Shown here: in pieces, positions 1 through 30,498 of the stretch
Layout: every line of letters starts with the position of its first letter
Position numbering within the stretch: the stretch's first letter is position 1
Made by a program: the position numbers and the translations under genes
Sequence record: HM173637
DNA: 36,661 bases
From: Escherichia phage HK75
Reading direction: 5' to 3' (one strand)
The notes under the pieces: generated by a model
What the model saw: only the letters and a program-made list of their open reading frames with translations
Told to the model about the DNA's origin: nothing
Databases searched by the model: none

Positions 1-49
1 GTTTGAATTTAACGCTAACCCGATTTTTTTAGTTTTAAGGTGTTGACAT

Positions 50-535: not shown

Positions 536-541
536 AAGACT

Positions 542-3330: not shown

Positions 3331-3335
3331 TTTTT

Positions 3336-4025: not shown

Positions 4026-4027
4026 TT

Positions 4028-5185: not shown

Positions 5186-5191
5186 TGGAGG

Positions 5192-5214
5192 GGGCGGGGA
5201 AACCCGCCCTTTTA
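5192..5214 (+). terminator. Intrinsic terminator/attenuator after major capsid gene
   Basis: GGGCGGG-gaaa-CCCGCCC hairpin followed by TTTTAA. Confidence 0.45.
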
Positions 5215-5218
5215 ACGT

Positions 5219-6673: not shown

Positions 6674-6692
6674 CAATTAATTCACCCAACGA

Positions 6693-6719
6693 ACCCGCCA
6701 GATGGCGGGTTTTCTTTTT
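6693..6719 (+). terminator. Hairpin plus T-run upstream of major tail gene
   Basis: ACCCGCC-agat-GGCGGGT followed by TTTTCTTTTT. Confidence 0.35.
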
Positions 6720-6732
6720 CCAGGAGACAGCT

Positions 6733-7437: not shown

Positions 7438-7471
7438 TGGAGATGCCGGGTTGTCCCGGCATGGATAAGCG

Positions 7472-7858
7472 ATGTCGCAAACTTTAAAACAATTAGCCAT
7501 GGCGAAAATGGCTGGCTTTCGCCATAAGACGGTCGTTGTCCCTGAGTGGGAAGGTGTCAAAGTGGTTCTCCGTGAGCCGTCAGGTGAAGCCTGGCTGCGC
7601 TGGCAGGAGGTGGTGAAAGGGGGGGCCGACGATGAAAATGTGTCGGTATCGGAAAAGGCGCACCGTAATCTTTGCGCTGACGTGGTGCTCTTCATTGACG
7701 TTCTGTGTGACACCGATAAGCAACCGGTATTCAGCGTAGACGAAGAAGAGCAGGTGCGTGAAATCTACGGGCCCGTGCACTCACGTCTGCTCAAACAGGC
7801 GCTTGACCTGATCAACAATGCGGACGAAGCGCGGGAAAAGTCTCAACCCCCGGCGTAA
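7472..7858 (+). CDS. Tail assembly chaperone (lambda G-like)
   Basis: 128-aa ORF between major tail and tape measure genes; ends next to a slippery GGGAAAAG run. Confidence 0.6.
   Translation: MSQTLKQLAMAKMAGFRHKTVVVPEWEGVKVVLREPSGEAWLRWQEVVKGGADDENVSVSEKAHRNLCADVVLFIDVLCDTDKQPVFSVDEEEQVREIYGPVHSRLLKQALDLINNADEAREKSQPPA
7833..7840 (+). other. Candidate -1 programmed frameshift site (G to G-T fusion)
   Basis: cGGGAAAAG at the 3' end of the G-like ORF; the downstream ORF is open in the -1 frame from at least 7831. Confidence 0.45.
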
Positions 7859-7866
7859 AGTTTCTG

Positions 7867-8145
7867 ATGTCGCTTGCGCTCCGGATGGGGCGCACGCTCT
7901 CAGAGCTTCGGCAGAATATGACGGCAAGCGAGCTTCTGATGTGGATTGAGTACGACAGGCAAAGCCCGGTTGGCGATATTCGCGGTGATATCCATGCAGC
8001 GCAGATTGTCTCTGCCATCTACGGCTCGCAGGGGGCAAAAGTACCGCTGGACGATGCGATCCTGCGCTGGGGTGGTGATGAGCAATCAGAACCGAAGGAC
8101 CCGTTTGCAGGGCTTGAGGCGGCACTTACAGCTGCGACACAATAA
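7867..8145 (+). CDS. Tail assembly chaperone T-segment, probably expressed only as G-T frameshift fusion
   Basis: 92-aa ORF in the -1 frame relative to G, no convincing own RBS, conserved G/T arrangement of tailed phages. Confidence 0.5.
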   Translation: MSLALRMGRTLSELRQNMTASELLMWIEYDRQSPVGDIRGDIHAAQIVSAIYGSQGAKVPLDDAILRWGGDEQSEPKDPFAGLEAALTAATQ

Positions 8146-8202
8146 TTGCTTCACATGCCTTCAATGTAGCGATACGCTCTTTCCTTAAGTAAAGGAGGCG
8201 TT

Positions 8203-8391
8203 ATGGAACCACTGGTAGTAGTGTTTGGAATATTCGGCTGGCTGATAAATCTAATTGTGATTTTTTATTTATTACGGTTTAGCACAAGGGCAAATGAACA
8301 AGTTGAAGCCCTTAAAGAGATAAATAAAAAGCAAGATGCGCAAATAGATTTATTAATACAAGTCGCTCACCAAAGAAAAGACAGTTTATAA
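8203..8391 (+). CDS. Small single-pass membrane protein (moron A), unknown function
   Basis: 62 aa; AAGGAGG RBS at 8192-8198; N-terminal hydrophobic helix then charged tail with RFSTRANEQVEALKEI motif; AT-rich; own terminator. Confidence 0.5.
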   Translation: MEPLVVVFGIFGWLINLIVIFYLLRFSTRANEQVEALKEINKKQDAQIDLLIQVAHQRKDSL

Positions 8392-8397
8392 CTCACG

Positions 8398-8422
8398 ACC
8401 CGCTATCAAGCGGGTTTTTTTT
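8398..8422 (+). terminator. Intrinsic terminator after moron A
   Basis: ACCCGC-tatcaa-GCGGGT followed by TTTTTTTT. Confidence 0.6.
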
Positions 8423-8434
8423 ATGGGTGAAAAT

Positions 8435-11400
8435 ATGGCTACGTTGCGCGAACTGATCATCAAAATATCTGCAAACTCTCAGTCATTCCAGTCTGAAATT
8501 TCTCGTGCTTCAAGAATGGGGAATGACTATTACCGGGTAATGCAGACTGGAGGACGCCAATCGGCCGCAGCTTCGCGTGAAACTCAGCGTGCCTTGGCTG
8601 AGGTAACTAGTCAAATAAACACCGCGAAGGCCTCAGCACTGGGAATGGCTGGTGCATTTGCTGGAGCATTTGCGACTGGTCATCTTATATCGCTGGCCGA
8701 TGAATGGAGCTCTGTTAATGCCAGGCTAAAGCAGGCTTCCCAGTCGTCAGATGATTTCACGGAGTCCCAGCGGGCGCTGATGGATATTAGCCAGCGAACC
8801 GGAACCGCCTTCTCTGATAATGCGAGTCTTTTTGCGCGTTCAGCCGCTTCTATGCGTGAATATGGCTACAGTTCAGAAGAGGTTCTGAAGGTAACCGAGG
8901 CTATATCAACAGGGCTTAAGCTGTCAGGCGCAAGCGCGTCTGAAGCGAGTTCGGTAATCACGCAGTTCAGCCAGGCTCTGGCGCAGGGTGTTCTTCGAGG
9001 CGAGGAATTTAACTCCGTCAACGAAAACGGTGATCGAGTTATCCGTGCTCTTGCCGCAGGGATGGGTGTAGCTCGTAAAGATCTGAAGGCAATGGCCGAT
9101 CAGGGGATGCTAACCGCAGATAAAGTTGTCCCGGCCCTGATAAGTCAACTTGGCACTATGCGTGGTGAATTTGAGGCAATGCCGCAGACCGTTTCTGCTG
9201 CCACGACGAAAGTCGAAAATGCTTTCATGGCATGGGTAGGTGGCGCTAATGAAGCCACTGGTGCGACAAGTACTCTTGTTGCCGTATTGAATACGGTTTC
9301 TGACAATATAGACACTGTGGCTACGGCTGCCGGAGCTTTGGCTGCGATAGGTGGAGCTCGCTATCTTGGAGGGATGTTTGGCGATCTTGGGAACCAGACG
9401 GCGCAATTAATAGATGCCAGAAAGAACGAAATTGCGCTCGCAGCTGCAAGGGCTGAATCTGCTACCCAATCACAACGCAAGGCCGCCGCCGATGCTATTG
9501 CTGCTGAGCGAGCTTACCAGCTTGCTCAGTCAGAACTTGTGCTGGCAAAGAATACTAATGCTGAGGCTACTGCCACTCAAAATGCCATATCCAAGCGCCG
9601 GGCAATGATTACAGCAAATGCGGCACTGGTACAGTCAAACAGAGCCGTTGCAGCCTCTCAGCAGGCACTTAACTCTGCAACATCAGTGCTGGGGCTTGTA
9701 AAAACTGGCGCTACGGGTCTTTTGTCGTTAGTTGGTGGTTTGCCAGGAATTTTAATGTTGGGTGCTGGGGCGTGGTACACGATGTATCAACGCCAAGAAC
9801 AAGCCAGGGAATCTGCAATCCAATATGCGGACACAATCGAGCAGGTACGAGATAATCTGAAATCAATGTCTCAGACGCAGATATCCGCCAACCTTGGACA
9901 GGCGAATATTTCACTGGATGCTCAGAATAGTGCGATTGAACAGCAGAAGCAGAAAGTTGCTGAATTATCAAATCAACTTTATAACGCAAAATTAGCAGCC
10001 AATTCTGCTTCAGAGGGGACATGGCTGTATAACGATGCGGTTGAGAAAGCCGCAGACTTTGCTTCAGAACTTGCGGTTGAAGAAGGCCGACTTGAGCAAA
10101 TGCTCAATAAAAGAAAGCAAACACAACAGTTAATAAACGACATAACTGATCAGGCTATAAATAAAACAGTAGAAATGGCTGGCGCCGTAAGTTCTCTTAC
10201 AGAGATGTATGACCGGCTGAACAAGGTTTCCAGACAGTCTACAGCAGTGTCCCCACCAAAATATGCAGGACCTGTACTTCCTGCGCTTGATAATAAGCAA
10301 CAACAAGCTATTGAGAAAGCACAGCGACAGCTTGAGCTATCTGGCCTTCAGGGTTTGGATAAGGCTCGAAAGCAGGCAGAATTCGATGCATCTGATCTGA
10401 ACCTTCCAGCTGGTTGGCGTGAGAAATATGTCAGCATGGAAGTTGAGTCTGCCAGGCAATTACAAGCAATTCGTAACTCAAGCCGCCATAAGGGTGGAAA
10501 ATCCGAGGCGGAAAAAACAGCTGATACCTATGACAAGCTGATCAAGCAGCAAAAAGAGCAGATCGCTCTGCAAGGGCAGAATACCGAGCTGGCAAAGGTT
10601 AAATATCAGGTAAGCCAGGGTGAGCTTTCTACGCTAAGTCAGGCCCAGAAAGCCGAAGTTATGCGTAATGCTGCTCTCATCGATCAGGTTAAATTGCGTG
10701 AGCAACTGCGAAATTACGAAGCCAACCTTGCTGACAGTAACGACAGCGCCCGCGCAGCCAATGAAGCGCAACTGCTGGGCTACGGGCAGGGAACCAGGTT
10801 CCGTGAAAGACTTCAGGAGCAGTTCAATCTGCGTAAGGAGTTTGAGCAGAAGAATACCGATCTTCTCCGCCAGCGTCAGGCTGGTGAAATCGACGAGACG
10901 TTCTATCAGCAGGGGCTGGCACTTAATAAGCGCTACCTCGAAGAGCGCCTGCGCGACCAGGAGGGATATTACGCAGCTTCTGATGCGCAGCGTGACGACT
11001 GGATGACGGGACTGTCTGAGGGTTATGCGAACTGGGTGGATGAAGCGACAGATTACTCCTCCATGGCAGCTGACGGGATGAAGCAGGCAATGGGTGGGGC
11101 GGTAACTTCGATTACTGACATGCTCAATGGTAACGTCGACAGCTGGAAGGACTGGGGTGTCAGCGTACTGAAGATCATCCAGAATGTTCTGGTCAATATG
11201 GCTGTTGCTAACGGCGTCAGTTCAATTGGTTCTCTCTTCAGCTTTGGCGCATCTTCCGCCGCTGCCGCCAGTAGCGGTACTGCAATTCAGAACGCTGGCG
11301 CGAACTTCACCTTTAACGCGAAGGGTAATGTTTACGACTCTCCGTCCCTGAGCGCATACAGCAATGGCGTGTTTCAGACCCCTCAGCTTTTTGCTTTTGC

Positions 11401-11701
11401 CAAAGGAGCGGGTGTGTTTGCAGAGGCTGGACCTGAAGCCATTATGCCGCTTACCCGTGCTGCTGATGGTTCGCTTGGCGTTCGGGCTGTTGGCACTGGT
11501 GGTGGTCAGGCTGTATCTTCGGCTCCACAGGTTTACATCACCATCGATGGCAACGGAAATACTTCCACGCAGACTTCACCCGGCCTTGAGCAATTTGGTG
11601 CTGATGTCGGTAAATATATTGATCAGCGATATAAGCAGAACATCATGCGAGATATTCGGCCTGGCGGTGACATCTGGAACGCAATGAAAGGAACCCGATA
11701 A
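8435..11701 (+). CDS. H: Tail tape measure protein
   Basis: About 1090 aa, Ala/Gln-rich coiled-coil character, between the chaperone genes and M; alternative in-frame ATG at 8423. Confidence 0.85.
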   Translation: MATLRELIIKISANSQSFQSEISRASRMGNDYYRVMQTGGRQSAAASRETQRALAEVTSQINTAKASALGMAGAFAGAFATGHLISLADEWSSVNARLKQASQSSDDFTESQRALMDISQRTGTAFSDNASLFARSAASMREYGYSSEEVLKVTEAISTGLKLSGASASEASSVITQFSQALAQGVLRGEEFNSVNENGDRVIRALAAGMGVARKDLKAMADQGMLTADKVVPALISQLGTMRGEFEAMPQTVSAATTKVENAFMAWVGGANEATGATSTLVAVLNTVSDNIDTVATAAGALAAIGGARYLGGMFGDLGNQTAQLIDARKNEIALAAARAESATQSQRKAAADAIAAERAYQLAQSELVLAKNTNAEATATQNAISKRRAMITANAALVQSNRAVAASQQALNSATSVLGLVKTGATGLLSLVGGLPGILMLGAGAWYTMYQRQEQARESAIQYADTIEQVRDNLKSMSQTQISANLGQANISLDAQNSAIEQQKQKVAELSNQLYNAKLAANSASEGTWLYNDAVEKAADFASELAVEEGRLEQMLNKRKQTQQLINDITDQAINKTVEMAGAVSSLTEMYDRLNKVSRQSTAVSPPKYAGPVLPALDNKQQQAIEKAQRQLELSGLQGLDKARKQAEFDASDLNLPAGWREKYVSMEVESARQLQAIRNSSRHKGGKSEAEKTADTYDKLIKQQKEQIALQGQNTELAKVKYQVSQGELSTLSQAQKAEVMRNAALIDQVKLREQLRNYEANLADSNDSARAANEAQLLGYGQGTRFRERLQEQFNLRKEFEQKNTDLLRQRQAGEIDETFYQQGLALNKRYLEERLRDQEGYYAASDAQRDDWMTGLSEGYANWVDEATDYSSMAADGMKQAMGGAVTSITDMLNGNVDSWKDWGVSVLKIIQNVLVNMAVANGVSSIGSLFSFGASSAAAASSGTAIQNAGANFTFNAKGNVYDSPSLSAYSNGVFQTPQLFAFAKGAGVFAEAGPEAIMPLTRAADGSLGVRAVGTGGGQAVSSAPQVYITIDGNGNTSTQTSPGLEQFGADVGKYIDQRYKQNIMRDIRPGGDIWNAMKGTR

Positions 11702-11703
11702 AA

Positions 11704-12042
11704 ATGGCTATCGAAACTTTCACCTGGTGCCCACGGATTAACGCGGAGGCTGATACAAGTTTCCGCGTCAGAAAAGCCCAGTTTGGCGATGGATATGAGC
11801 AGGTTTCAGGGGATGGATTGAATACCAGAACCCAGCAGTGGACGCTCAACTTTACTGGCAACGAAACCTACATTTCTGCCATTAAATCTTTTCTCGACAG
11901 GCATGAAGGAACGAAAGCCTTTCAATGGAAGCCACCGCTCGAACCTTTGGGTTTGTATCGTTGCGAAACGTATAAACCCACCGGGCTTGGCGCGGGGAAA
12001 TTCAACCTTGAAGCAACATTCATCCAGGCATTTAAACCATGA
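11704..12042 (+). CDS. M: Minor tail protein M
   Basis: 112-aa ORF directly after the tape measure, lambda gene order. Confidence 0.75.
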   Translation: MAIETFTWCPRINAEADTSFRVRKAQFGDGYEQVSGDGLNTRTQQWTLNFTGNETYISAIKSFLDRHEGTKAFQWKPPLEPLGLYRCETYKPTGLGAGKFNLEATFIQAFKP

Positions 12043-12797
12043 GCTTAAACGCAGACTATCAGAAGCTTGAATCCGGAAACGATGTTCGTCTGATTGAGGT
12101 GGACGGTTCTTCCTTTGGGCTAACGGACGTTCTCCGCTTTCACAATTACAGCATTCCCCACACAGAAGCGGAAATCATCGCCGCTGGTGGGGATGAGTCC
12201 AAGCTTCCGGCGAAACCAATCTGGTGGCAGGGAAATGAATACGCCGCCTGGCCGTATCAGCTGGAAGGCCTGGAAAAATCAACCAGTGGGAGCAATGCAA
12301 CGCCATCACTGACGGTTGCGAACATCGAAAGCTCTATTTCTGCCATGTGTCTTGCGTATGACGATCTGCTGCAGGCGAAAGTCACTATTCACGACACAAA
12401 AGAGAAATATCTCGATGCCAGAAATTTCGCGGACGGCAACCCCACAGCAGACCCGACTCAGGAAAAGCTGCAGGTCTGGTATATCGACGGGAAAACTGGC
12501 GAGCTTGCCGGTGAAACCGTTGAATTTGTTCTGTCCAGCCCGATGGACCTGCAGGGGCAAATGATCCCGACGCGACAGCTTCATTCCCTGTGTACCTGGT
12601 GCATCCGAAATAAATATCGTACCGGCGACGGCTGCGACTATGCCGGCACCCGCTATTTCGATAAAAACAACAACCCGGTAAGCGATCCGTCGCTGGATGA
12701 ATGCAATGGCACGCTGACGGCCTGCAAACTCCGATTCGGCGAAAATAACGAACTCTCGTTTGGTGGCTTCCCTGGTACGTCGCTGATCAGGAGTTGA
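12039..12797 (+). CDS. L: Minor tail protein L
   Basis: 252 aa, Cys cluster near the C-terminus (CTWC...C...C) as in lambda gpL, coupled start. Confidence 0.75.
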   Translation: MSLNADYQKLESGNDVRLIEVDGSSFGLTDVLRFHNYSIPHTEAEIIAAGGDESKLPAKPIWWQGNEYAAWPYQLEGLEKSTSGSNATPSLTVANIESSISAMCLAYDDLLQAKVTIHDTKEKYLDARNFADGNPTADPTQEKLQVWYIDGKTGELAGETVEFVLSSPMDLQGQMIPTRQLHSLCTWCIRNKYRTGDGCDYAGTRYFDKNNNPVSDPSLDECNGTLTACKLRFGENNELSFGGFPGTSLIRS

Positions 12798-12798
12798 T

Positions 12799-13509
12799 AT
12801 GCGTCAGAAAACCATCGATGCGATTATGGCGCATGCTGCAGCTGAATATCCTCGTGAGTGTTGCGGCGTGGTGGCGCAAAAGAGCCGGGTAGAGAAATAT
12901 TTTCCATGTAGTAACCTCGCTACCGAGCCGACAGAACATTTTCACCTGTCGCCAGAAGACTATGCAGCTGCTGAGGACTGGGGTACGGTGATCGCCATCG
13001 TTCACAGTCACCCTGACGCCACAACGCAGCCGAGCGAACTGGATAAAGCGCAATGCGACGCAACGCTTTTACCCTGGCATATTGTGAGCTGGCCGGATGG
13101 GGATTTACGCACCATCCAGCCGCGCGGAGAACTGCCACTGCTGGAGCGTCCGTTTGTGCTTGGACACTTCGACTGCTGGGGGCTGGTAATGAGCTATTTC
13201 CGGCAAACGCATGGTATCGAGCTCCACGATTACCGGGTGGATTATCCCTGGTGGGAAAACGCCTATCCGGACAATTTTTATCAGGATTGCTGGTATGAAT
13301 GCGGATTCAGGGAGTTTGACGGCCCGCCTCAGGAAGGGGACCTCGTCATCATGCAGGTGCAGGCCGATAAGTGGAATCATGCCGGGATTTTACTGGAGGG
13401 TAACATGCTGCTGCACCACCTGTACGGACATCTGAGCCAGCGCGTGCCGTATGGGGGCTACTGGCAGGAAAGGACGATGAAGATTCTTAGACATCAGAAT
13501 TTTATTTAA
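12799..13509 (+). CDS. K: Tail assembly protein K (MPN/JAB plus NlpC/P60-like)
   Basis: 236 aa with HSHP motif and conserved Cys/His, lambda K position. Confidence 0.75.
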   Translation: MRQKTIDAIMAHAAAEYPRECCGVVAQKSRVEKYFPCSNLATEPTEHFHLSPEDYAAAEDWGTVIAIVHSHPDATTQPSELDKAQCDATLLPWHIVSWPDGDLRTIQPRGELPLLERPFVLGHFDCWGLVMSYFRQTHGIELHDYRVDYPWWENAYPDNFYQDCWYECGFREFDGPPQEGDLVIMQVQADKWNHAGILLEGNMLLHHLYGHLSQRVPYGGYWQERTMKILRHQNFI

Positions 13510-13556
13510 CAAACTGTCACTGATACTATCGTGTAGCACACAGCAAGGAGAACGAT

Positions 13557-13781
13557 ATGTATACAGTTGGGTTTGGTTGGATCTTCGTCGGTATTTTTAT
13601 TGGGTTAATTCTCTGGTTTTTCATCAACCGCGCCAGCGTCAGAGCGAACAGGCAGGTTGAATTACTTGAGTCTATCGACCAGAAATTATCAAAAATAGTA
13701 GATCCAAACTTCGAGGCAAATAACAAAGACCAGTCGAAAGAAAACTACCTTGAAGAAGCAAGGAAAAAAGCTGGGCTTTGA
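13557..13781 (+). CDS. Small single-pass membrane protein (moron B), paralog of moron A
   Basis: 74 aa; AAGGAG RBS at 13545-13550; TM helix then NRASVRANRQVELLESI motif shared with the 8203-8391 protein; own terminator. Confidence 0.5.
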   Translation: MYTVGFGWIFVGIFIGLILWFFINRASVRANRQVELLESIDQKLSKIVDPNFEANNKDQSKENYLEEARKKAGL

Positions 13782-13796
13782 GAGCGTAAATTAACA

Positions 13797-13820
13797 AACC
13801 ACCTACGGGTGGTTTTTTTT
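13797..13820 (+). terminator. Intrinsic terminator after moron B
   Basis: AACCACC-tacg-GGTGGTT followed by TTTTTT. Confidence 0.6.
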
Positions 13821-13831
13821 ATGGGGGCAGC

Positions 13832-14440
13832 ATGCAAGAGGTAATGACAAGAATTGAGCTAAGTGGCGTGCTAGCTAAGACATATGGAAGGGTTCATCAC
13901 CGTCTGGTTCGCACTACTGCTGAAGCCATTAATGCACTCGCGAAAACCATCAATGGATTCGAGAAATTCTTAAACACAAGCAAGGCCCGAGGGCTGACGT
14001 ATGCCGTTTATAGAGATAAAAAGAATATTGGCGTTGATGATCTCGGCTTTCCCGTCACCGGCGAAGTGATCCGGATTGTCCCTGTAGTAATAGGGAGTAA
14101 AAAGGCTGGTCTTTTGCAGACGATCTTGGGGGCTGTGCTTATTACTGCTGCTGTGTTGACTGGACCAGGCGGTATTGGCGCTGCTTTCGCTGCTGGTGGA
14201 TTGACGGGGTTTGCTGCTGCCACTGGTGCCTCGTTGGTCCTCGGTGGGGTTATTCAGCTGCTTTCACCGCAGCCATCAGGCATAGCCAGTAAACAAAGCG
14301 CAGATAACCGTGCATCGTATGCGTTTGGCGGGGTAACCAACACTGCAGCGCAAGGCTACCCGGTGCCTCTGCTTTATGGTAAGCGTCGAATCGGCGGAGC
14401 GATTATTTCTGCCGGAATTTATGTCGAAGATCAGCAGTAG
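13832..14440 (+). CDS. I: Tail assembly protein I
   Basis: 202 aa with Gly/Ala-rich hydrophobic C-terminal half, between K and J as in lambda. Confidence 0.7.
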   Translation: MQEVMTRIELSGVLAKTYGRVHHRLVRTTAEAINALAKTINGFEKFLNTSKARGLTYAVYRDKKNIGVDDLGFPVTGEVIRIVPVVIGSKKAGLLQTILGAVLITAAVLTGPGGIGAAFAAGGLTGFAAATGASLVLGGVIQLLSPQPSGIASKQSADNRASYAFGGVTNTAAQGYPVPLLYGKRRIGGAIISAGIYVEDQQ

Positions 14441-14459
14441 ATAACTAACCTTTTTTCTG

Positions 14460-14481
14460 GCCACCTTCGGGTGGCTTTTTT
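14460..14481 (+). terminator. Hairpin plus T-run between I and J
   Basis: GCCACC-ttcg-GGTGGC followed by TTTTTT. Confidence 0.5.
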
Positions 14482-14492
14482 ATGGGCGCAAT

Positions 14493-17400
14493 ATGGCTAC
14501 AGATAAAGTGTTAAAAGGCCGCAAGGGCGGCAGCTCAAGTTCCCGAACCCCTACCGAACAGCCTGATGATCTGCAATCTGTAGCGAAGGCAAAGATCCTC
14601 GTTGCGCTTGGGGAAGGGGAGTTTGCTGGACAGCTCACCGGGAAGGATATCTACCTGGACGGAACAGCGCTGGAGAATGCTGACGGCTCCCAAAACTTCA
14701 GCGGGGTAACGTGGGAGTTTCGCGCGGGAACGCAGGCGCAAAAATATATTCAGGGTATTCCCGGTACCGAAAACGAGATCAGCGTAGGAACTGAGGTATC
14801 AAGTGCCACAGCCTGGACGCGCACGTTTACCAATACGCAGCTTTCAGCAGTTCGCCTGCGTCTTAAATGGCCCTCGCTTTTCAAACAGGAAGACGACGGC
14901 GATCTGGTGGGTTACTCGGTCAATTATGCGATTGACCTGCAGACGGACGGCGGCACATGGCAGACGGTACTCAATACCAGCGTGACCGGAAAAACGACGT
15001 CTGGTTATGAGCGCAGCCACCGCATCGATTTACCGCAGGCTGGCAGCACCTGGACAATCCGCCTGCGTAAGATTACCTCTGACGCCAACAGCGCGAAGAT
15101 CGGCGACACGATGACGCTGCAGAGCTTCACTGAGGTTATTGACGCCAAGTTACGATATCCAAACACAGCGTTACTCTACATCGAATTCGATTCAAGCCAG
15201 TTTAACGGCTCTATCCCGCAGATCTCCTGCGAGCCCCGCGGCCGTGTTATCCGCGTTCCTGATACCTACGACCCTGAAACCCGCACTTATAGCGGTACAT
15301 GGACCGGTGCGTTTAAGTGGGCATGGACGGATAACCCTGCGTGGATTTTTTACGATCTGGTTGTTTCTGACCGGTTCGGCCTTGGGCACCGTTTGACCGC
15401 TGCGAATATTGATAAATGGACGCTTTATCAGGTTGCTCAGTATTGTGATCAGATGGTACCAGACGGCAAAGGGGGCAACGGTACAGAACCACGCTATACC
15501 TGCAACGTGTACATTCAGGACCGGAACGACGCCTACACAGTCCTACGTGATTTTGCCGCTATCTTCCGTGGCATGACCTACTGGGGCGGGGATCAGATTG
15601 TGGCCCTGGCTGACATGCCGCGCGATGTTGATTACAGCTATACGCGCGCTAACGTTGTTGGCGGTCGCTTCACCTATTCGAGCAGCACCACGAAAAGCCG
15701 CTACACCACAGCGCTGGTTTCATGGTCAGACCCGGGTAACGCTTATGCCGACGCGATGGAGCCGGTATTTGAGCAGGCGCTGGTGGCGCGGTACGGCTTC
15801 AATCAGCTGGAAATGACAGCCATCGGCTGCACCAGGCAGTCAGAGGCGAACCGAAAGGGGCGCTGGGGTATTCTCACCAATAACAAGGATCGCGTTGTTT
15901 CGTTTGATGTCGGGCTGGACGGAAACATTCCGCAGCCTGGCTACATCATCGCCGTGGCAGACGAGCTGCTTTCCGGAAAGGTTATGGGCGGCCGCATCAG
16001 CGCCGTTAACGGTCGCGTTATCAAACTTGACCGCGTAGCTGATGCAGCACCAGGTGATCGCCTTATTCTCAACCTTCCCTCCGGAGCGTCGCAGAGCAGG
16101 ACCATTCAGGCCGTGAACGGGGAATCAGTCACAGTCACCACGGCATACAGTGAGACGCCACAGGCCGAAGCTGTTTGGGTGGTTGAATCTGACGAGCTCT
16201 ACGCGCAGCAGTATCGAGTTGTCAGCGTTTCCGATAACGGGGATGGCACTTTCTCAATCACCGGCGCATGGCACGACCCGGATAAATATGCCCGTATCGA
16301 TACCGGAGCCATCATTGACCAGCGGCCGGTGAGCGTGATTCCGCCGGGTAACCAGTCGCCGCCTGCGAACATCGTGATCAGCTCGTTTTCCGTGGTTCAG
16401 CAAAATATCAGCGTCGAAACAATGCGCGTGAGCTGGGACCAGGCGCAGAACGCTATCGCCTATGAAGCGCAATGGCGCCGCAACGACGGGAACTGGGTTA
16501 ACGTGCCGCGCACCTCCACCACGTCATTCGACGTCCCGGGGATTTATGCCGGGCGCTACCTGGTGCGGGTGCGCGCAATCAATGCCGCAGAAATTTCATC
16601 CGGATGGGGCTATTCAGAAGAGAAAACGCTGACGGGTAAAGTGGGCAATCCACCTAAGCCGGTTGGCTTCATCGCTTCTGAAAATGTGGTTTTCGGCATC
16701 GAGCTGAACTGGGGATTCCCGGCGAATACCGACGACACGCTGAAGACGGAAATTCAGTACAGCCTGACCGGTACTGAAGACGATGCCATGCTGCTGGCCG
16801 ATGTGCCTTACCCGCAGCGCAAATATCAGCAGATGGGCCTTAAGGCTGGGCAGATTTTCTGGTACCGCGCGCAGCTGGTTGACCGCAGCGGTAACGAGTC
16901 AGGTTATACCGGCTGGGTTCGTGGGCAGGCCAGTATCGATGTTTCTGACATCACAGATGTGATCCTTGAAGACATCAAAGGGTCTGAGACGTTCAAAGAC
17001 CTGATCGAGAACGCTGTGGACAGCAATGAAAAAATTGCTGGCATGGCTGACGACATCAAACAGGCCAACGATGAACTTGAACTCCAGGCGCAGGAAATCG
17101 CAAAAAACGCGCAGGACATCGGGCAGGTTCAGACCAGCGTTAATGAGCTTTCTAGCACGGTCGGTGATGTGTCGTCTTCTCTCTCAGATCTTGAGCAGAC
17201 TGTTGCGACTGCTGATACCGCACTGGGCCAGCGAATCGACAGCATCAGCGTGTCTATGGACGGCATGACGGGCGGGGTGAAGAACTCTGCTATCGCAATT
17301 ATCCAGAACGGGCTGGCACAAGTGGCTACGCGTAAATCGTTGTCAGCTTCGGTCGCAGGGAACAGTGCGCAGCTGGATCGTATTGATGAGGTAATCGTTA

Positions 17401-18044
17401 ACGAGAAGGAGGCAACGGCGCGTTCTCTGCTGAGCCTGCAGACGGATGTCAACGGCAACAAGGCATCCATAAACAGCCTGAATCAGACGTTCTCCGACTA
17501 TCAGCAGGCTACGGCCACGCAGATAAACGGCATTACGGCGACCGTGAACGGGCATACCTCCGCCATCACCACTAACGCTCAGGCGATAGCCAACGTTAAT
17601 GGCGACCTCAGCGCGATGTACAACATCAAGGTTGGCGTTTCCAGCAACGGTCAGTATTACGCCGCGGGGATGGGTATCGGCGTGGAGAATACGCCATCCG
17701 GCATGCAGTCGCAGGTTATCTTCCTGGCTGATCGCTTCGCCGTCACCACGGCAGCCGGAAATAGCGTGGCTTTGCCGTTTGTGATCCAGAATGGACAGAC
17801 ATTCATCCGGGCCAGCTTCATCCAGGACGGCACCATTGAGAACGCCAAAATCGGCAACTATATCCAGTCCAACAACTATGCAGCTGGTTCTGCTGGCTGG
17901 AAGCTTGATAAAGGGGGGACGTTTGAGAACTACGGTTCGACTGCTGGTGAGGGAGCCATGAAACTGACAAATCAGACGATCAGCGTCAAAGATGGCAGTA
18001 ATGTTCTTAGGGTGCAGGTTGGCCGATTAACGGGAGTATTCTGA
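14493..18044 (+). CDS. J: Host specificity / central tail fibre protein J
   Basis: 1183 aa, lambda J position and size, fibronectin-III-like central region, variable C-terminus. Confidence 0.85.
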   Translation: MATDKVLKGRKGGSSSSRTPTEQPDDLQSVAKAKILVALGEGEFAGQLTGKDIYLDGTALENADGSQNFSGVTWEFRAGTQAQKYIQGIPGTENEISVGTEVSSATAWTRTFTNTQLSAVRLRLKWPSLFKQEDDGDLVGYSVNYAIDLQTDGGTWQTVLNTSVTGKTTSGYERSHRIDLPQAGSTWTIRLRKITSDANSAKIGDTMTLQSFTEVIDAKLRYPNTALLYIEFDSSQFNGSIPQISCEPRGRVIRVPDTYDPETRTYSGTWTGAFKWAWTDNPAWIFYDLVVSDRFGLGHRLTAANIDKWTLYQVAQYCDQMVPDGKGGNGTEPRYTCNVYIQDRNDAYTVLRDFAAIFRGMTYWGGDQIVALADMPRDVDYSYTRANVVGGRFTYSSSTTKSRYTTALVSWSDPGNAYADAMEPVFEQALVARYGFNQLEMTAIGCTRQSEANRKGRWGILTNNKDRVVSFDVGLDGNIPQPGYIIAVADELLSGKVMGGRISAVNGRVIKLDRVADAAPGDRLILNLPSGASQSRTIQAVNGESVTVTTAYSETPQAEAVWVVESDELYAQQYRVVSVSDNGDGTFSITGAWHDPDKYARIDTGAIIDQRPVSVIPPGNQSPPANIVISSFSVVQQNISVETMRVSWDQAQNAIAYEAQWRRNDGNWVNVPRTSTTSFDVPGIYAGRYLVRVRAINAAEISSGWGYSEEKTLTGKVGNPPKPVGFIASENVVFGIELNWGFPANTDDTLKTEIQYSLTGTEDDAMLLADVPYPQRKYQQMGLKAGQIFWYRAQLVDRSGNESGYTGWVRGQASIDVSDITDVILEDIKGSETFKDLIENAVDSNEKIAGMADDIKQANDELELQAQEIAKNAQDIGQVQTSVNELSSTVGDVSSSLSDLEQTVATADTALGQRIDSISVSMDGMTGGVKNSAIAIIQNGLAQVATRKSLSASVAGNSAQLDRIDEVIVNEKEATARSLLSLQTDVNGNKASINSLNQTFSDYQQATATQINGITATVNGHTSAITTNAQAIANVNGDLSAMYNIKVGVSSNGQYYAAGMGIGVENTPSGMQSQVIFLADRFAVTTAAGNSVALPFVIQNGQTFIRASFIQDGTIENAKIGNYIQSNNYAAGSAGWKLDKGGTFENYGSTAGEGAMKLTNQTISVKDGSNVLRVQVGRLTGVF

Positions 18045-18045
18045 A

Positions 18046-18348
18046 ATGGCTTATGGAATACAGACCTGGGATGCTTCAGGAAAACCCAACAACTATGGCA
18101 TCAAACCCGTTTCCGTCGTTGGGCGAATACAGCTGGCTGCCGGGCAAACCTCCGGCAGCTGGTCTTTTACGGTGCCCTCAGGAATGAAAGTTGGTTTTGT
18201 TCTTTCACTTGATGAAGGAGGTAACAGCGTAGGGCGGCGCATTGTCGCGTCAGGGAGCACAATAACCGTAAGCGCTGCATCTTCTGTAGGTCTGGGTAAT
18301 TATCCGGCCTCAAAGTGTGAAGTGGTCGTTTTCATGGAGAAAGCATAA
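18046..18348 (+). CDS. Hypothetical protein downstream of J
   Basis: 100-aa ORF coupled to the J stop; shares a WD-x-SGK motif with the next ORF. Confidence 0.4.
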   Translation: MAYGIQTWDASGKPNNYGIKPVSVVGRIQLAAGQTSGSWSFTVPSGMKVGFVLSLDEGGNSVGRRIVASGSTITVSAASSVGLGNYPASKCEVVVFMEKA

Positions 18349-18986
18349 TGGCCGAATTTGGCGCGATGATATTAATGGACAACGGGAACCCATTTGTAAC
18401 GCCCCAGTCAACGCCTTTTTGTCTTTACGGCAAGTACACTTTCAACTCCTCTGCTAATGGCAGTTCGCAGCAGGTTACTCAGAATATTGCATTAAATGCT
18501 GACTACCCTGTGATGGTATTTATCAGGACCACAAATACCGCCCAGCCCACGCCAGTAATATCTTACCGGAACGGCGGGAATATATATGTCGCGGGGGTTA
18601 ATCCCTATAACCAGAGCTTCACGTTAACCGCATATATTTTTGCCATATTTCCCCAGACGTTACCGAAATGGGGGATGGCCATCTGGGATTCGAGCGGGAA
18701 GCTGGTACTCACTAATGAGTCCCGCGTGCTGTCAGACTTGCAGACAATCGGAACGCCTGGAGCAAACGGCGGGATTAACATTGACCAGACGCTTGATGGT
18801 TCATGGGCAGTGGCTCCATCAAGGCTGGGGCAAGTGAACAGAAACGACGCTTACTCATCTTGTAGGTATTCAGGCACAAGTACAAGAATAAACGCCGGTA
18901 CAGCCGCAAATACACCTGGCGGTGCTGGAGGGGTGATAAATAATGGAATTATCCTGACAGCAATTAAAACAGACGCCTATGATTGA
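18348..18986 (+). CDS. Hypothetical protein with internal repeat of the preceding ORF's domain
   Basis: 212 aa, start overlaps the preceding stop; contains two motif copies (MILMDNGNP and MAIWDSSGK). Confidence 0.4.
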   Translation: MAEFGAMILMDNGNPFVTPQSTPFCLYGKYTFNSSANGSSQQVTQNIALNADYPVMVFIRTTNTAQPTPVISYRNGGNIYVAGVNPYNQSFTLTAYIFAIFPQTLPKWGMAIWDSSGKLVLTNESRVLSDLQTIGTPGANGGINIDQTLDGSWAVAPSRLGQVNRNDAYSSCRYSGTSTRINAGTAANTPGGAGGVINNGIILTAIKTDAYD

Positions 18987-25530: not shown

Positions 25531-25640
25531 AATAAGACCTCAACTCTTTTCCACCCGTCACGTAATTTACGGGTGATTCGTTCAAGTAAAGATTCGGAAG
25601 GGCAGCCAGCAACAGGCCACCCTGCAATGGCATATTGCAT
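25515..25640 (-). CDS. cIII: cIII-like FtsH inhibitor
   Basis: MQYAIAGWPVAGCPSESLLERITRKLRDGWKR matches the recalled lambda cIII N-terminal/central region; 41 aa from the internal ATG of the 25515-25742 ORF. Confidence 0.6.
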   Translation of the reverse strand: MQYAIAGWPVAGCPSESLLERITRKLRDGWKRVEVLLCAMK

Positions 25641-25703
25641 GGTGTGCTCCTTATTTATACATAACGAAAAACGCCTCTCGTGAAGCGTTATTGGTATGCA
25701 TAT

Positions 25704-27704: not shown

Positions 27705-28001
27705 ATGGCACAAGCAAGCTACAGCAAGCCAACACAGCGAGAAATTGATCGCGCTGAAACTGATTTACTCATCAACCTGTCAACGCTTACCCAGCGCGGT
27801 CTGGCAAAGATGATTGGCTGTCATGAATCGAAGATAAGCAGAACGGACTGGAGATTTATTGCTTCGGTCTTGTGTGCTTTCGGAATGGCATCAGACATCA
27901 GTCCGATTAGCAGGGCTTTTAAGTATGCATTGGATGGAATCGCAAAGAAAAAATCCCCGGCTGCCACCGAGGATTTTAAGCAAATTGATATGCAATTCTG
28001 A
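27705..28001 (+). CDS. cII: cII-like transcriptional activator
   Basis: 98 aa; C-terminal KKSPAATEDFKQIDMQF close to recalled lambda cII C-terminus; HTH LAKMIGCHESKISR. Confidence 0.75.
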   Translation: MAQASYSKPTQREIDRAETDLLINLSTLTQRGLAKMIGCHESKISRTDWRFIASVLCAFGMASDISPISRAFKYALDGIAKKKSPAATEDFKQIDMQF

Positions 28002-28033: not shown

Positions 28034-28195
28034 ATGACAAAACGTCGTAAGAAATACCAGGAAAAAGAAGAGATTCGACACCCTGATTCACCTGAGGGAT
28101 TAGTGGTAGCCGCAGCAAATAACAGGGCGTTCGCAGAGCGCCTTGTTGGTGTTTACAGACTAGCCAAAGCAGGAGTGAAACATGGGCGTCGTTAA
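28034..28195 (+). CDS. Small basic protein (53 aa), unknown
   Basis: ATG with GGAG RBS (28025-28028); Lys/Arg-rich N-terminus; below the ORF-track size cutoff. Confidence 0.3.
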   Translation: MTKRRKKYQEKEEIRHPDSPEGLVVAAANNRAFAERLVGVYRLAKAGVKHGRR

Positions 28196-28244
28196 GTTAG
28201 CTGATTACAGGCATAACCCTGTACAACATCAGGAGGCATCCAGT

Positions 28245-29072
28245 ATGGGGTATGTCTCTATACACCGCCAGTTTATGGACAGCAGGCTCTATAAGGACTC
28301 TCAGGCAGTACATCTTTGGCTTCACTTAATTCTCAAGGCTAATCACGAATCTACTGTCGTCAATACGGATATCGGGCCGATAACTGTTGATCGCGGTCAG
28401 ATGATAACTGGACGCCCGTCGCTGGTCAGAGAAACATTCATCCCCGACAACAAAGTTCGGAGCTTATTACGGACTTTTGAGTCGAAAGGGATGCTTAATA
28501 TTTGCTCGATGGGGAAGAAATTTAGCCTGTTTACAATCGTTAAATATGACGATTTTCAGGCAAAAAATTGTCCAACGGTTGTCCAACGGTTGTCCAACGC
28601 AAACACCAGTAATGGCGCGGCTCTCAGCGGAGATTGTCCAACGGTTGTCCAACGGTTGTCCATAAACAATAATATAAATAATATCTCTAATACTGACGTA
28701 TTAGAGAGTGCCACAGCAGACAAAAAGTCTGACAAGAAAAAACCTTCCGTTAGCTGTCAGGATGTTGTCGATGCTTACCACGAAATCCTTCCTGAAGCGC
28801 CAAAAATCCGCGCACTGAATGACAAGCGTAAAAACCAGATCCGAACGTTCTGGCGCAAAGCCGGAGTGATAACCCGCCAGCTTGACGGGCATGGGTTCAC
28901 GATGCAGGACTGGAGAAATTATTTGAGCTACGTAGGCGAAAATTGTCGATGGATGTTCGAAGAGCGTCCAAACCATCAACGCGGAACTGTCTGGCACAAA
29001 AAGGGATTTGATTTCCTGCTTAACGACAATACCTACCTGAAAGTTCGTGAGGGTGAACACGATGACCGATAA
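28245..29072 (+). CDS. Replication initiator (lambda O / P22 gp18-like) containing the origin iterons
   Basis: ATG 28245 with AGGAGG RBS; two clusters of three 11-bp iterons inside the coding region followed by an AT-rich stretch. Confidence 0.7.
   Translation: MGYVSIHRQFMDSRLYKDSQAVHLWLHLILKANHESTVVNTDIGPITVDRGQMITGRPSLVRETFIPDNKVRSLLRTFESKGMLNICSMGKKFSLFTIVKYDDFQAKNCPTVVQRLSNANTSNGAALSGDCPTVVQRLSINNNINNISNTDVLESATADKKSDKKKPSVSCQDVVDAYHEILPEAPKIRALNDKRKNQIRTFWRKAGVITRQLDGHGFTMQDWRNYLSYVGENCRWMFEERPNHQRGTVWHKKGFDFLLNDNTYLKVREGEHDDR
28568..28600 (+). repeat. ori iteron cluster 1 (3 x TTGTCCAACGG)
   Basis: Three tandem 11-bp direct repeats. Confidence 0.8.
28634..28666 (+). repeat. ori iteron cluster 2 (2 x TTGTCCAACGG plus degenerate TTGTCCATAAA) followed by AT-rich region
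   Basis: Tandem 11-bp direct repeats 33 bp after cluster 1; AT-rich 28667-28700. Confidence 0.8.
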
Positions 29073-30498
29073 TTTTTATGCGCCGCCCCATAGCATCGAG
29101 GCAGAGCAGGCGGTGATTGGTGGATTGCTTCTGGATGATGACAGCAGTGAGCGCGTCCAGAAAGTTCTGGCGATGCTGAAGCCTGATTCATTTTACAGCC
29201 GACCACACAAAATCCTTTTCGAAGAAATAACCAGAATGCACCGGGAGCAAAAGCCAGTAGATGGCCTGACGCTTTTCGATGAACTGGAGCGTAAATCGTT
29301 AACGGCGTCTGTTGGCGGTTTTGCTTATATCGCTGAGATCGCAAAGAGCACGCCAAGCGCAGCAAACATCGTTGCCTATGCAATGCAGGTTCGTGAAACC
29401 GCAATGGAACGCTACGCCATCAACCGCATGACTGAAGCGACGGAATTGCTCTATTCCCGCAACGGAATGACTGCAACGCAGAAGTACGAAGCTATTCAGT
29501 CGATTTTCACGCAACTGACAGACCATGCAAAAACAGGATCGCGTCGCGGCCTTCGCTCATTTGGTGAGGTCATGGAAGACTGGGTTAGCGACCTTGAGAA
29601 GCGATTTGACCCGTCAGGCGAACAACGAGGAATGAGCACAGGGATCCCATCGCTGGACAGGATGCTGTCACCGAAAGGTCTGGTGAAAGGCTCTCTGTTT
29701 GTCATTGGTGCTCGCCCTAAGATGGGGAAAACGACGCTATACAGCCAGATGGCAATCAACTGCGCAGTGCATGAGAAAAAGCCCGCTCTTATGTTCAGCC
29801 TTGAAATGCCAGGTGACCAGATACTGGAAAAACTGGTAGGGCAGAAGTCTGGTGTTAACCCGAATATTTTTTACCTTCCGGCGACAAATGACGCTGATGA
29901 CGGCTATCAGGGTGATTACGATGGTGACTTCAACAGGGCGATCGAAACAGCCAATCGCTTGAGTGAAATCGACCTGCTTTACATCGACGACACGCCGGGA
30001 TTATCTCTGGCTCAAATCGTCAGCGAAAGTCGTCGAATCAAGCGAGAAAAAGGATGTGTTGGCATGATTCTGGTCGATTACCTGACACTAATGACCGCTG
30101 AAAAGGCCGATCGCAACGACCTTGCTTACGGCATGATCACCAAAGGACTGAAGAACCTTGCCAAAGAGCTTGATTGCGTTGTTGTGCTTCTGACACAGCT
30201 TAACCGCGCACTGGAAAGCCGAACCAATAAACGCCCATTACCAAGTGACTCACGAGATACAGGGCAGATTGAACAGGATTGCGATTATTGGGTGGGGATC
30301 CATCGTGAAGGCGCTTTTGATGACAGTGTTCCACCTGGTGAAACTGAACTAATCCTTCGTCTCAATCGTCATGGCAATACCGGCACGGTGTATTGCATTC
30401 AGGCAAATGGCGCTATTTATGACACCGACCAACAGTCTGCTGAAATGCGCCGCCGTGAACGCGAGGAACCGCAGTCCAAGAAGAAAGGAGGATTCTGA
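29062..30498 (+). CDS. Replicative DNA helicase (DnaB family)
   Basis: About 479 aa; Walker A GARPKMGKT; DnaB N-terminal IEAEQAVIGGLL; start overlaps the initiator gene end. Confidence 0.85.
   Translation: MTDNFYAPPHSIEAEQAVIGGLLLDDDSSERVQKVLAMLKPDSFYSRPHKILFEEITRMHREQKPVDGLTLFDELERKSLTASVGGFAYIAEIAKSTPSAANIVAYAMQVRETAMERYAINRMTEATELLYSRNGMTATQKYEAIQSIFTQLTDHAKTGSRRGLRSFGEVMEDWVSDLEKRFDPSGEQRGMSTGIPSLDRMLSPKGLVKGSLFVIGARPKMGKTTLYSQMAINCAVHEKKPALMFSLEMPGDQILEKLVGQKSGVNPNIFYLPATNDADDGYQGDYDGDFNRAIETANRLSEIDLLYIDDTPGLSLAQIVSESRRIKREKGCVGMILVDYLTLMTAEKADRNDLAYGMITKGLKNLAKELDCVVVLLTQLNRALESRTNKRPLPSDSRDTGQIEQDCDYWVGIHREGAFDDSVPPGETELILRLNRHGNTGTVYCIQANGAIYDTDQQSAEMRRREREEPQSKKKGGF

Follow-up and report, generated by a model that had tools for sequence, protein, structure and literature searches.

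A probable theta-replication origin of the HK022/Sf6/L type within the initiator gene of Escherichia phage HK75

An origin of the kind considered here has been proposed before for several close relatives of HK75. The genome paper for phage L names "six imprecise repeats of ... TGTCCAACGGA" (11 bp) as the likely origin of that phage (PMC8022706), and in the sequence records of Shigella phage Sf6 (gene 43), coliphage HK620 (O) and Salmonella phage L (gene 18) the same repeats are annotated as a putative origin, the O gene of HK022 also counting amongst those with an annotated putative origin; the rep_origin feature of Sf6 spans exactly the repeat block, and that of HK620 is annotated in two parts. 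According to PMC8022706, genetic exchange data put the origin of phage L within the gene 18-12 region, and Hilliker (1981) is cited there for the replication regions of P22 and L being exchangeable only as a whole. Since these records and the phage L paper describe the same repeats, the layout of the origin is already known from close relatives, by inference, and the preliminary description of the HK75 sequence was right to present it as known biology. A literature search for a footprint, an origin-plasmid assay or the mapping of an initiation site for the 11-bp repeat type returned none, and the published statements about such origins are arguments from analogy. The published annotations of the relatives also end at the repeats, leaving out the A+T-rich tract and the palindrome that follow them.

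Three further systems serve for comparison. In phage lambda, as in HK75, iterons are followed by an A+T-rich tract (40 bp in lambda) and then by a palindrome, all of them midway along the initiator gene; the likeness extends to the initiator itself, as both proteins have two domains with the origin in the linker region between them, and both genes follow cII in the early right operon. The initiator of Bacillus phage SPP1, gp38 (G38P, a ‘replisome organizer’), has been shown to bind direct repeats of oriL, a proven origin located inside gene 38 beside an A+T-rich unwinding element (PMC6316719). As in HK75, a gene for a DnaB-family helicase lies downstream, but SPP1 has a separate loader (gp39) and a second origin (oriR), and its repeats differ from those of HK75 in both sequence and period. 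Plasmid initiators of the RepA_N type from Gram-positive bacteria (e.g. pSK41 RepA) have a DnaD-related winged-helix N-terminal domain, with iterons placed centrally in the rep gene.

The initiator, its domains and its partner gene

Within the window (the whole 36.6-kb stretch of HK75 DNA analysed; record HM173637), the genes of this region run in the order cI-like repressor, cro-like, cII, small orf, initiator and DnaB helicase. The ‘O-like’ replication initiator gene (28182–29072, plus strand; 296 aa) corresponds to gene 43 of Sf6 and gene 18 of phage L; its product matches the ‘replication initiation O-like’ family phrog_345, to which the Sf6 protein also belongs, along residues 1–296 (E 4.8e-85); searches of Pfam and NCBIfam gave no family above cut-off. 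At the nucleotide level the gene is 98.8–99.4% identical to those of Sf6 (98.8%), IME10, HK629 and others, and protein identity falls from 99.3% for Sf6 gp43 to 82% for ST64T/L gp18 and 66% for HK022 O. This last comparison is very uneven along the protein, with 48% identity in the N-terminal domain, 29% in the linker and 99% in the C-terminal domain, and the iterons differ; HK620, like HK022, combines an N-terminal domain only 48% identical to that of HK75 and a different core, TTACCAGCA, with a C-terminal domain that is 99% identical.

The N-terminal domain (aa 23–128, encoded by 28248–28565 on the plus strand) is homologous to that of SPP1 gp38: residues 20–127 align with gp38 residues 2–112 at 28% identity (BLASTP, E 8e-13), tblastn finds SPP1 and staphylococcal ‘DnaD-like’ proteins, and PHROG ‘DnaD-like helicase loader’ families match as well (E 1.1e-23 and 7e-16). 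Its fold is predicted to be winged-helix-like, and the domain is a candidate for origin binding. In an AlphaFold2 (AF2) model of medium quality (mean pLDDT 67.5, shallow alignment), this part reaches a pLDDT of about 80–90 with a helix-helix-beta-hairpin topology, and the top Foldseek matches are all winged-helix DNA binders, albeit at E values of at least 0.012. Ranked 8 and 24 amongst these are PDB entries 4pql and 4pt7, which we take to be RepA_N-type initiators (pSK41 RepA); the matches are weak (E 0.057–0.10), and these initiators share no sequence similarity with that of HK75. Neither the protein nor a profile gave a meaningful match when searched against PDB sequences.

The C-terminal domain (aa 190–293; 28749–29060, plus strand; AF2 pLDDT about 80–90) is presumed to recruit the helicase. 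It lacks the Phg_2220_C family (PF09524) that forms the C-terminal domain of SPP1 gp38, and shows weak similarity to the C-terminus of P22 gp18 (E 0.002–0.009). Homology to the C-terminal domain of lambda O was considered and rejected: hhalign returns a probability of 97.6% for our alignment A1 against lambda O, because an Erwinia phage row included there has a lambda-O-like C-terminal domain, and only 0.3% when the alignment is confined to close relatives (A3). BLASTP finds no match between lambda O and the HK75 initiator, and the N-terminal family Phage_rep_O (PF04492), detected in lambda O (5.7e-36) and P22 gp18 (6.9e-38), is absent from HK75. The preliminary description had called the protein O-like and the arrangement lambdoid; on this sequence evidence both terms hold for the layout only, the N-terminal domain not being of the lambda-O type and the iterons being 11-bp direct repeats.

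Immediately downstream is the gene for a DnaB-type replicative helicase (29062–30498, plus strand; Pfam DnaB 6.2e-31, DnaB_C 3.4e-60). Its reading frame opens at a GTG at 29047, the ATG at 29062 matches the start of Sf6 gene 44, and the gene overlaps the 3′ end and stop of the initiator gene; no loader gene lies between the two amongst the ORFs of the window. Lambda O, in contrast, recruits the host’s DnaB by way of P, whereas the partner in HK75 is a phage DnaB-type helicase.

With full-length initiator homology, a 3+3 repeat array, an A+T-rich tract with a palindrome, and an adjoining helicase gene, HK75 carries the HK022/Sf6/L-type replication module. We consider it very probable that the repeats and the elements that follow them are the theta-replication origin of this module, lying in that part of the initiator gene which encodes an interdomain linker predicted to be disordered.

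The repeat array

Repeats, A+T-rich tract and palindrome all lie in mid-gene inside the initiator ORF, bearing out the location given in the preliminary description. Sequence reading and repeat finders agree on four exact copies of TTGTCCAACGG, at 28568–28578, 28579–28589, 28634–28644 and 28645–28655. A third member of the first cluster, TTGTCCAACGC at 28590–28600, matches the repeat at 10/11 positions, and the last member of the second is truncated, reading TTGTCCA (28656–28662) before running into taaa, a 7/11 match. Cluster 1 (28568–28600, plus strand) thus consists of three head-to-tail 11-mers starting at 28568, 28579 and 28590, with the conserved 8-bp core TGTCCAAC, and cluster 2 (28634–28662, plus strand) of two exact 11-mers and the truncated sixth copy; the six iterons in two clusters of three, the last degenerate, that were first noticed in the sequence are therefore confirmed, as is the 33-bp separation between them. 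This spacer (28601–28633, neither strand being assigned) equals 3 x 11 bp, so that the clusters are kept in helical phase with a sequence free to vary between them; the cluster starts are 66 bp (6 x 11) apart, and all six copies therefore fall in a single 11-bp phase.

The two arrays are the top-scoring tandem repeats of the window. Allowing up to one mismatch, TTGTCCAACGG occurs five times in the 36.6 kb, always within the origin arrays, against a chance expectation of 0.60 (at most three in any of 100 shuffles, none of which reached five), and the core TGTCCAAC is found nowhere else on either strand, with ~0.5 occurrences expected per strand. Promoter-like matches inside the repeats do not exceed the counts expected from shuffled sequence, and an Rfam search gave no match at the origin. 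A CRISPR array, with repeats of ~24–48 nt, unique spacers of similar length and a non-coding setting, was rejected as a description: those of HK75 measure 11 nt, are contiguous save for one 33-bp gap and form part of the translated sequence of a conserved gene, and so are not CRISPR-like. The comparison with other phages that the preliminary description proposed sets HK75 apart, as lambda and P22 both have four ~19-bp, internally palindromic iterons at a spacing of 20–24 bp, unlike the six direct repeats in two triplets seen here. The junction between adjacent repeats, CAACgGTTG, might itself be taken as a dyad-symmetric dimer site recurring every 11 bp, but this palindrome is missing from the other core classes, and we have kept the direct-repeat reading for that reason.

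Looking across the family, we find the 3+3 layout of 11-mers, with the exact 66-bp spacing of clusters, at 265 of 289 loci that encode a related N-terminal domain. Our detector did not pick up the 11-bp/66-bp layout at the remaining 24; the two distant relatives inspected amongst these (31–37% identity) have 12-bp repeats, again in two clusters, and locus L065 is a further case, with a single cluster. In nature, variants occur with a single cluster or with three, which means either that there is no strict need for six sites or that some of the prophages concerned are defective. Amongst 60 distinct relatives the minor-allele fraction is 0.003 in the core columns compared with ~0.10 at linker positions, in the spacer and in flanking coding DNA, and 30 of the 33 spacer columns vary between close relatives, a pattern from which we infer that selection acts on the repeat cores at the level of DNA.

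These figures bear on a reading that traces the periodicity to a repeated peptide in the linker, CPTVVQRLS, with no function for the DNA itself. The 33-bp clusters are in frame, so that the peptide is indeed encoded twice, and residues P131 and P153 do not vary in the protein alignment; a period of 11 bp is not, however, a multiple of three, and within a cluster each of the three copies falls in a different reading frame (codon phases 2,1,0,2,1,0 for the six copies), so that no peptide repeat could generate the 11-bp pattern. The core is moreover some 30 times less variable than the neighbouring coding DNA, the segment encoded by the repeats is predicted to be disordered, and the amino acids of the linker vary between classes (only 29% identity to HK022) with the DNA layout constant. 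We give the peptide explanation almost no credence.

The cores themselves fall into seven classes, TGTCCAAC, TGTCCAGC, GTGCCAAC, TTACCAAC, TTACCAGC, TTCCCAAC and GTGCCATC, that have CCA in common; the phage L repeat TGTCCAACGGA shares its core with HK75. Between classes, N-terminal domains are at most 0.52–0.70 identical (0.80 and 0.94 where the cores are nearly the same), whereas C-terminal domains reach 0.99–1.00. Amongst pairs of loci, which are not phylogenetically independent, the core differs in 0/81 with N-terminal domains at least 80% and C-terminal domains less than 60% identical, and in 120 of 1089 with C-terminal domains at least 95% identical, every one of those 120 having N-terminal domains no more than 67% identical. 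The repeat core, then, tracks the N-terminal and not the C-terminal domain of the initiator; and because of this co-variation, seen over 265 loci, the sequence of the repeats is indeed a marker of specificity type, as first suggested. The C-terminal domain for its part tracks the downstream partner gene, the two agreeing in type at 262/265 loci (252 with the C-terminal domain found in the window beside a DnaB helicase, and 10 with an Erwinia-type domain beside a lambda-P-like loader), with an unclassified C-terminal domain beside a DnaB-like gene at the other three. Modular specificity of this kind, N-terminal domain with origin and C-terminal domain with partner, is also a property of lambda.

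Such tracking is hard to reconcile with binding of the repeats by a host protein, such as DnaA, in place of the phage initiator. The DnaA box has the textbook consensus TTATCCACA, which TTGTCCAAC matches at 6/9 positions, and the natural variant at locus L056 reads TTATCCAACGG; but the match goes no further than that, the HK022-type core TTACCAGC is more distant still from the DnaA box, and the core differs amongst phages of the same hosts in step with the phage N-terminal domain, a pattern that would not arise from a conserved host protein. We therefore rejected the DnaA boxes, and regard recognition by the host as extremely improbable.

In the mechanism that we favour, the winged-helix-like N-terminal domain would bind the six direct repeats at their 8-bp core, TGTCCAAC; the sites being about one helical turn apart, bound proteins would thereby line up along the same side of the helix and could form an O-some-like complex on the two triplets, whose starts are 66 bp apart. 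The same binding might instead be mainly regulatory (autoregulation, titration, handcuffing, or a block to transcription or translation), with replication starting elsewhere. Plasmid iterons also have control functions, which speaks for such a role. SPP1 gp38 also has a second binding site, oriR, at which it may stall forks (PMC6316719), and our literature search found no mapping of initiation for this initiator family. Against this, the absence of the core from the rest of the 36.6-kb window leaves no alternative cluster, repeats that always precede a conserved palindrome and the most A+T-rich tract of the window have the anatomy of an origin, and the origin of phage L has been placed in the gene 18-12 region by genetic exchange (PMC8022706); a purely regulatory array is in our judgement highly unlikely.

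The A+T-rich tract and the palindrome

Directly after the truncated sixth repeat comes the A+T-rich stretch noted in the preliminary description, TAAACAATAATATAAATAATA (28663–28683, no strand assigned), in which 20 of 21 positions (95%) are A or T. Only 3 of the ~36,600 21-nt windows along the DNA, which overall is 49.8% A+T, are as A+T-rich, and across the family the tract has a median length of 21 nt and a median A+T content of 86%. We presume it to be the DNA unwinding element: strain induced by the initiator complex would open this adjoining 21-bp tract, and the C-terminal domain would bring in the phage’s own DnaB-type helicase, the product of the next gene.

Beyond the tract an inverted-repeat finder locates a perfect palindrome, TCTCTAATAC-tgac-GTATTAGAGA (28684–28707, no strand assigned), with 10-bp arms and a 4-nt loop. 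The span first proposed for the origin, 28568–28700, is thus correct at its start but cuts through this 10+4+10 element at its end. Lambda has a palindrome of 12+4+12 after its own A+T-rich tract, also with a 4-nt loop; a search of SPP1 gene 38 detected no equivalent. Folded as a DNA hairpin the HK75 palindrome gives -7.9/-8.8 kcal/mol (z about -4.8), and a perfect stem of 9–10 bp is present at 264 of the 265 family loci, in 17 different arm sequences. Nine of the ten stem pairs are altered on both sides somewhere in the family and none on one side only; in 27 distinct sequences we count 84 double-sided changes and not a single G-U/G-T pair. Conservation of pairing through so many changes of sequence points to the palindrome as a structural part of this origin type, and we count it as part of the element; its possible roles, at the site where the DNA opens, are those of an extruded hairpin or of a structural boundary.

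For the palindrome alone there is a further explanation, namely that it works as RNA, either as a leftward (antisense) intrinsic terminator or as a hairpin in mRNA, and not as a DNA structure of the origin. A terminator scan flags the hairpin on the minus strand, where TATTATTTAT follows it, the phage L record has a minus-strand terminator annotated at this very position, and as RNA the palindrome folds at -12 to -13.8 kcal/mol. The stems are nevertheless poor in G+C, with 1–4 G-C pairs per 9–10, which is weak for a terminator, and terminator-like matches in the region (4) do not exceed the shuffled expectation (2.3 +/- 1.8); the total lack of G-U/G-T pairs amongst the double-sided changes fits self-complementarity of both DNA strands better than a constraint on a single RNA, and the lambda origin has a palindrome at the same position. 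We think an RNA element unlikely, though less so than the alternatives weighed for the repeats.

Retaining the palindrome as DNA, one may venture a bolder and distinctly tentative proposal: that it is an essential DNA element of this origin class, extruded as a hairpin or cruciform upon opening of the A+T-rich tract and marking the place of helicase loading or of the start of priming, that it is the counterpart of lambda’s never-explained 28-bp palindrome and is possibly what is sensed in such phages by defences against palindromes or origins (Lamassu/DdmABC, SbcCD), and that the seven CCA-sharing cores, each tied to a class of N-terminal domain, amount to a readable recognition code.

Significance of the origin class

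The replication type of HK75 is now fixed as that of the Sf6/L class (core TGTCCAAC), as opposed to the classes of HK022/HK620, lambda and P22. Assignment to an origin class is useful both in annotation and in predicting cross-activation, or competition between origins, amongst lambdoid phages and prophages. The label ‘O protein’ hides a DNA-binding domain of the SPP1 gp38 lineage, not that of lambda O. Palindromes and origins of phages are sensed by certain defence systems, according to recent work (PMC12663957), and a covarying palindrome beside an unwinding element may bear on this. Finally, origin, N-terminal domain, and C-terminal domain with its partner have been exchanged as separate modules, so that the family offers natural swaps of specificity for use in experiments.

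Six in-phase repeats within the initiator gene

Reading along the initiator ORF (28182–29072; 296 aa), we see the repeats arranged as two clusters of three abutting 11-mers, starting at 28568, 28579 and 28590 and at 28634, 28645 and 28656, positions returned both by a repeat finder and by Tandem Repeats Finder. The first cluster reads aaaaaa-TTGTCCAACGG-TTGTCCAACGG-TTGTCCAACGc and, after a 33-bp spacer, the second reads TTGTCCAACGG-TTGTCCAACGG-TTGTCCAtaaa; the cluster starts lie 66 bp (6 x 11) apart, so that all six copies share one common 11-bp phase. If at most one mismatch is allowed, the window holds five matches to the 11-mer, all at the putative origin (0.60 expected by chance; five reached in 0 of 100 shuffles), and its 8-bp core, TGTCCAAC, has no further occurrence in the window on either strand; that these abutting copies form a CRISPR array, or are host DnaA sites, we consider unlikely. 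Immediately downstream, 28663–28683 is A+T at 20 of 21 positions, a value reached by no more than three segments of that length in 36.6 kb. The preliminary description had given six 11-mers, 33 bp between clusters and an AT-rich stretch, all borne out here; its limits, 28568–28700, hold for the repeats and A+T tract, but the end should move to 28707 to take in a palindrome.

Among 60 distinct close relatives, the mean minor-allele fraction is 0.003 in core columns, against about 0.10 at repeat positions 10, 11 and 1, 0.085 in the spacer and 0.10–0.12 in flanking coding DNA; on this comparison, selection on the repeats acts at the DNA level. The copies might instead be the by-product of a peptide repeat, an unlikely reading given these fractions and the codon phases of the six copies (2,1,0,2,1,0), which rule out a purely peptide-level repeat. 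The 66-bp module of cluster plus spacer is itself polymorphic, at one to three copies, every variant being in frame: proteins with one cluster have 274 aa (locus L065, 2001–2822; proteins P0032–P0042, of which P0036 is found on 33 contigs), the two-cluster HK75 protein 296 aa and those with three 318 aa (locus L063, 2001–2954; P0001–P0022)—a variation that goes beyond the preliminary description. Of 5426 complete E. coli genomes, 145 carry the 181-nt origin region at nearly full length.

As a putative origin the element is ordinary: for phages nearly identical to HK75 it has already been published and recorded in databases. The initiator gene is 98.8–99.4% identical to those of IME10, ECP1, HK629, HK106, mEp234 and Sf6; the Sf6 record carries a rep_origin feature covering exactly the repeat block, and the HK620 and phage L records hold equivalent features, as befits what had been called known biology. 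The phage L genome paper (PMC8022706) takes six imprecise repeats of this kind to be the likely origin. In our literature search, neither a binding assay nor an origin assay came up for this 11-bp repeat type. Whilst the observation of the repeats is confirmed, their interpretation as an origin is supported at the level of sequence; that they are binding sites with a regulatory role only is unlikely.

A covarying palindrome beside the A+T tract

Directly after the A+T tract lies a feature absent from the preliminary description, a perfect palindrome (28684–28707; TCTCTAATAC-tgac-GTATTAGAGA, 10+4+10), predicted to fold as single-stranded DNA with an energy near -8 kcal/mol (z about -4.8). Amongst relatives drawn from annotated phages and about 315 IMG/VR loci, 265 of the 289 loci with a related N-domain carry 3+3 11-mers at exactly 66-bp cluster spacing, and in 264 of these 265 a perfect 9–10-bp inverted repeat follows the A+T tract, usually beginning 28 nt after the point where the sixth repeat starts; its loop is 4 nt long (TAAC, TGAC or TAAA), and 17 different arm sequences occur in all; the lambda origin has a 12+4+12 palindrome at the equivalent position. 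Across 27 distinct sequences 95.6% of cells pair, versus 61.8% in shuffles; double-sided changes (84 cells) affect nine of the ten pairs, and no one-sided change is seen in the stem, hence no G–T pair. This strong covariation, too, is new relative to the earlier description. The stems contain little G+C, and the peptide encoded here falls within the disordered linker. A minus-strand terminator-like element, as it is read in the phage L record and by a terminator scan, is possible; with its weak stems and lack of wobble pairs, however, the palindrome fits a constraint on DNA self-complementarity better than an RNA terminator.

Lineage and setting of the initiator

The initiator scores E 4.8e-85 against phrog_345, ‘replication initiation O-like’; no family of Pfam or NCBIfam passes the cut-off. 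PF04492, present in the N-domain of lambda O and P22 gp18, is absent; BLASTP detects no similarity to lambda O, and with P22 gp18 it gives just a weak match at the C terminus (E 0.002); profile comparison gives a probability of 0.3% for lambda O and E 0.009 for P22 gp18. When a protein alignment (A1) matched the C-domain of lambda O, the match was rejected, being due to the Erwinia phage in that alignment. By these comparisons the protein is not of the lambda-O type: the O-like, lambdoid reading is supported for the layout only, the N-domain falling outside the lambda O family. Instead, residues 20–127 are homologous to SPP1 gp38 (28% identity, E 8e-13) and to staphylococcal ‘DnaD-like’ phage proteins, placing the predicted DNA-binding domain in the SPP1 gp38 lineage, a point beyond the preliminary description. 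SPP1 gp38 is an origin-binding protein characterised by experiment, and oriL, with direct repeats and an A+T-rich unwinding element, lies inside gene 38 (PMC6316719), so that there too the origin sits within the initiator gene. Just 3' of the N-domain coding part of gene 38 (locus L328, 1259–1346) we see a pair of 16-nt repeats, 33 bp apart, and three of 14 nt with a 9-bp spacing.

The AlphaFold model (mean pLDDT 67.5) has confident domains at residues 30–128 and 190–293, separated by a low-confidence segment (140–188) encoded by the spacer, second repeat cluster, A+T tract and palindrome. Its best Foldseek PDB matches are all winged-helix DNA-binding domains (E at least 0.012), consistent with, rather than conclusive for, a winged-helix N-domain.

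The genes upstream of the initiator are an S24-type repressor (minus strand), a cro-like gene, cII (PF05269) and an orf of 53 aa. On the minus strand, a terminator-like hairpin of 12 pairs followed by a T run (27950–27977) overlaps the cII-like gene at its 3' end, where the P22 annotation places the oop terminator. Downstream, the ORF of a DnaB-type helicase overlaps the initiator 3' end (29047–29072), with an ATG at 29062 within ...ATGACCGATAA and the initiator stop at 29070–29072; the overlap suggests translational coupling. As a whole, the window is the mosaic genome of an HK97/HK022-like coliphage (siphophage), its left 18.5 kb (bases 1–18500) 99.0% identical to HK633 from HK633 base 4 and its right half a patchwork of mEpX2, HK542 and HK022 in 9–12 pieces. 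It holds no tRNA genes; at 25595–25653 (minus strand) Rfam scores a match to Lambda_thermo, the cIII thermoregulator of lambda (88.5 bits, E 1.7e-20).

Modularity of the putative origin–initiator unit

Seven core classes, all sharing CCA, are found: TGTCCAGC (119 loci), the HK75 core (87), GTGCCAAC (39), TTACCAAC (11), TTACCAGC of HK022 (6), TTCCCAAC (2) and GTGCCATC (1). Between classes, N-domain identity is at most 52–70% (80% and 94% for near-identical cores) and C-domain identity up to 99–100%. The core differs in 0 of 81 pairs with N-domain identity of at least 80% and C-domain below 60%, and in 120 of 1089 with C-domain at least 95%, all 120 having N-domains at or below 67% (the pairs being phylogenetically non-independent). 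HK022 O provides the clearest single case: 48% identical to the HK75 initiator in the N-domain, 29% in the linker and 99% in the C-domain, with repeats TTACCAGCA as against TGTCCAACG in HK75. More distant initiators (31–37% identity; L194, 1850–1977; L225, 1914–2043) have 12-bp direct repeats in two in-gene clusters.

The C-domain, on these sequences, tracks the partner gene: the HK75 type accompanies a DnaB-like helicase gene at 252 loci, the Erwinia type a lambda-P-like gene at 10, and another C-domain DnaB at 3. Erwinia phage vB_EhrS_59 (L009, 738–2017) and nine similar IMG/VR loci combine a related N-domain and 3+3 11-bp repeats with a lambda-O-like C-domain, followed by a lambda-P-like loader rather than a DnaB helicase; these are a natural domain swap. 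The P22 and L replication regions can be exchanged only as a whole (PMC8022706).

The anatomy, its conservation, the two co-variation patterns and the N-domain homology to SPP1 gp38 are direct observations. If lambda O and SPP1 gp38 are taken as models, the N-domains would occupy the six in-phase cores along one face of the helix and form a bent nucleoprotein complex, the adjoining A+T tract would open, the C-domain would recruit the phage DnaB-type helicase, and the palindrome may act at or beside the opened region. The proposal that the iteron sequence marks the specificity type is supported among the 265 loci, where comparison of sequences shows the core to track the N-domain; the family-wide modularity, of core with N-domain and C-domain with partner, extends it.
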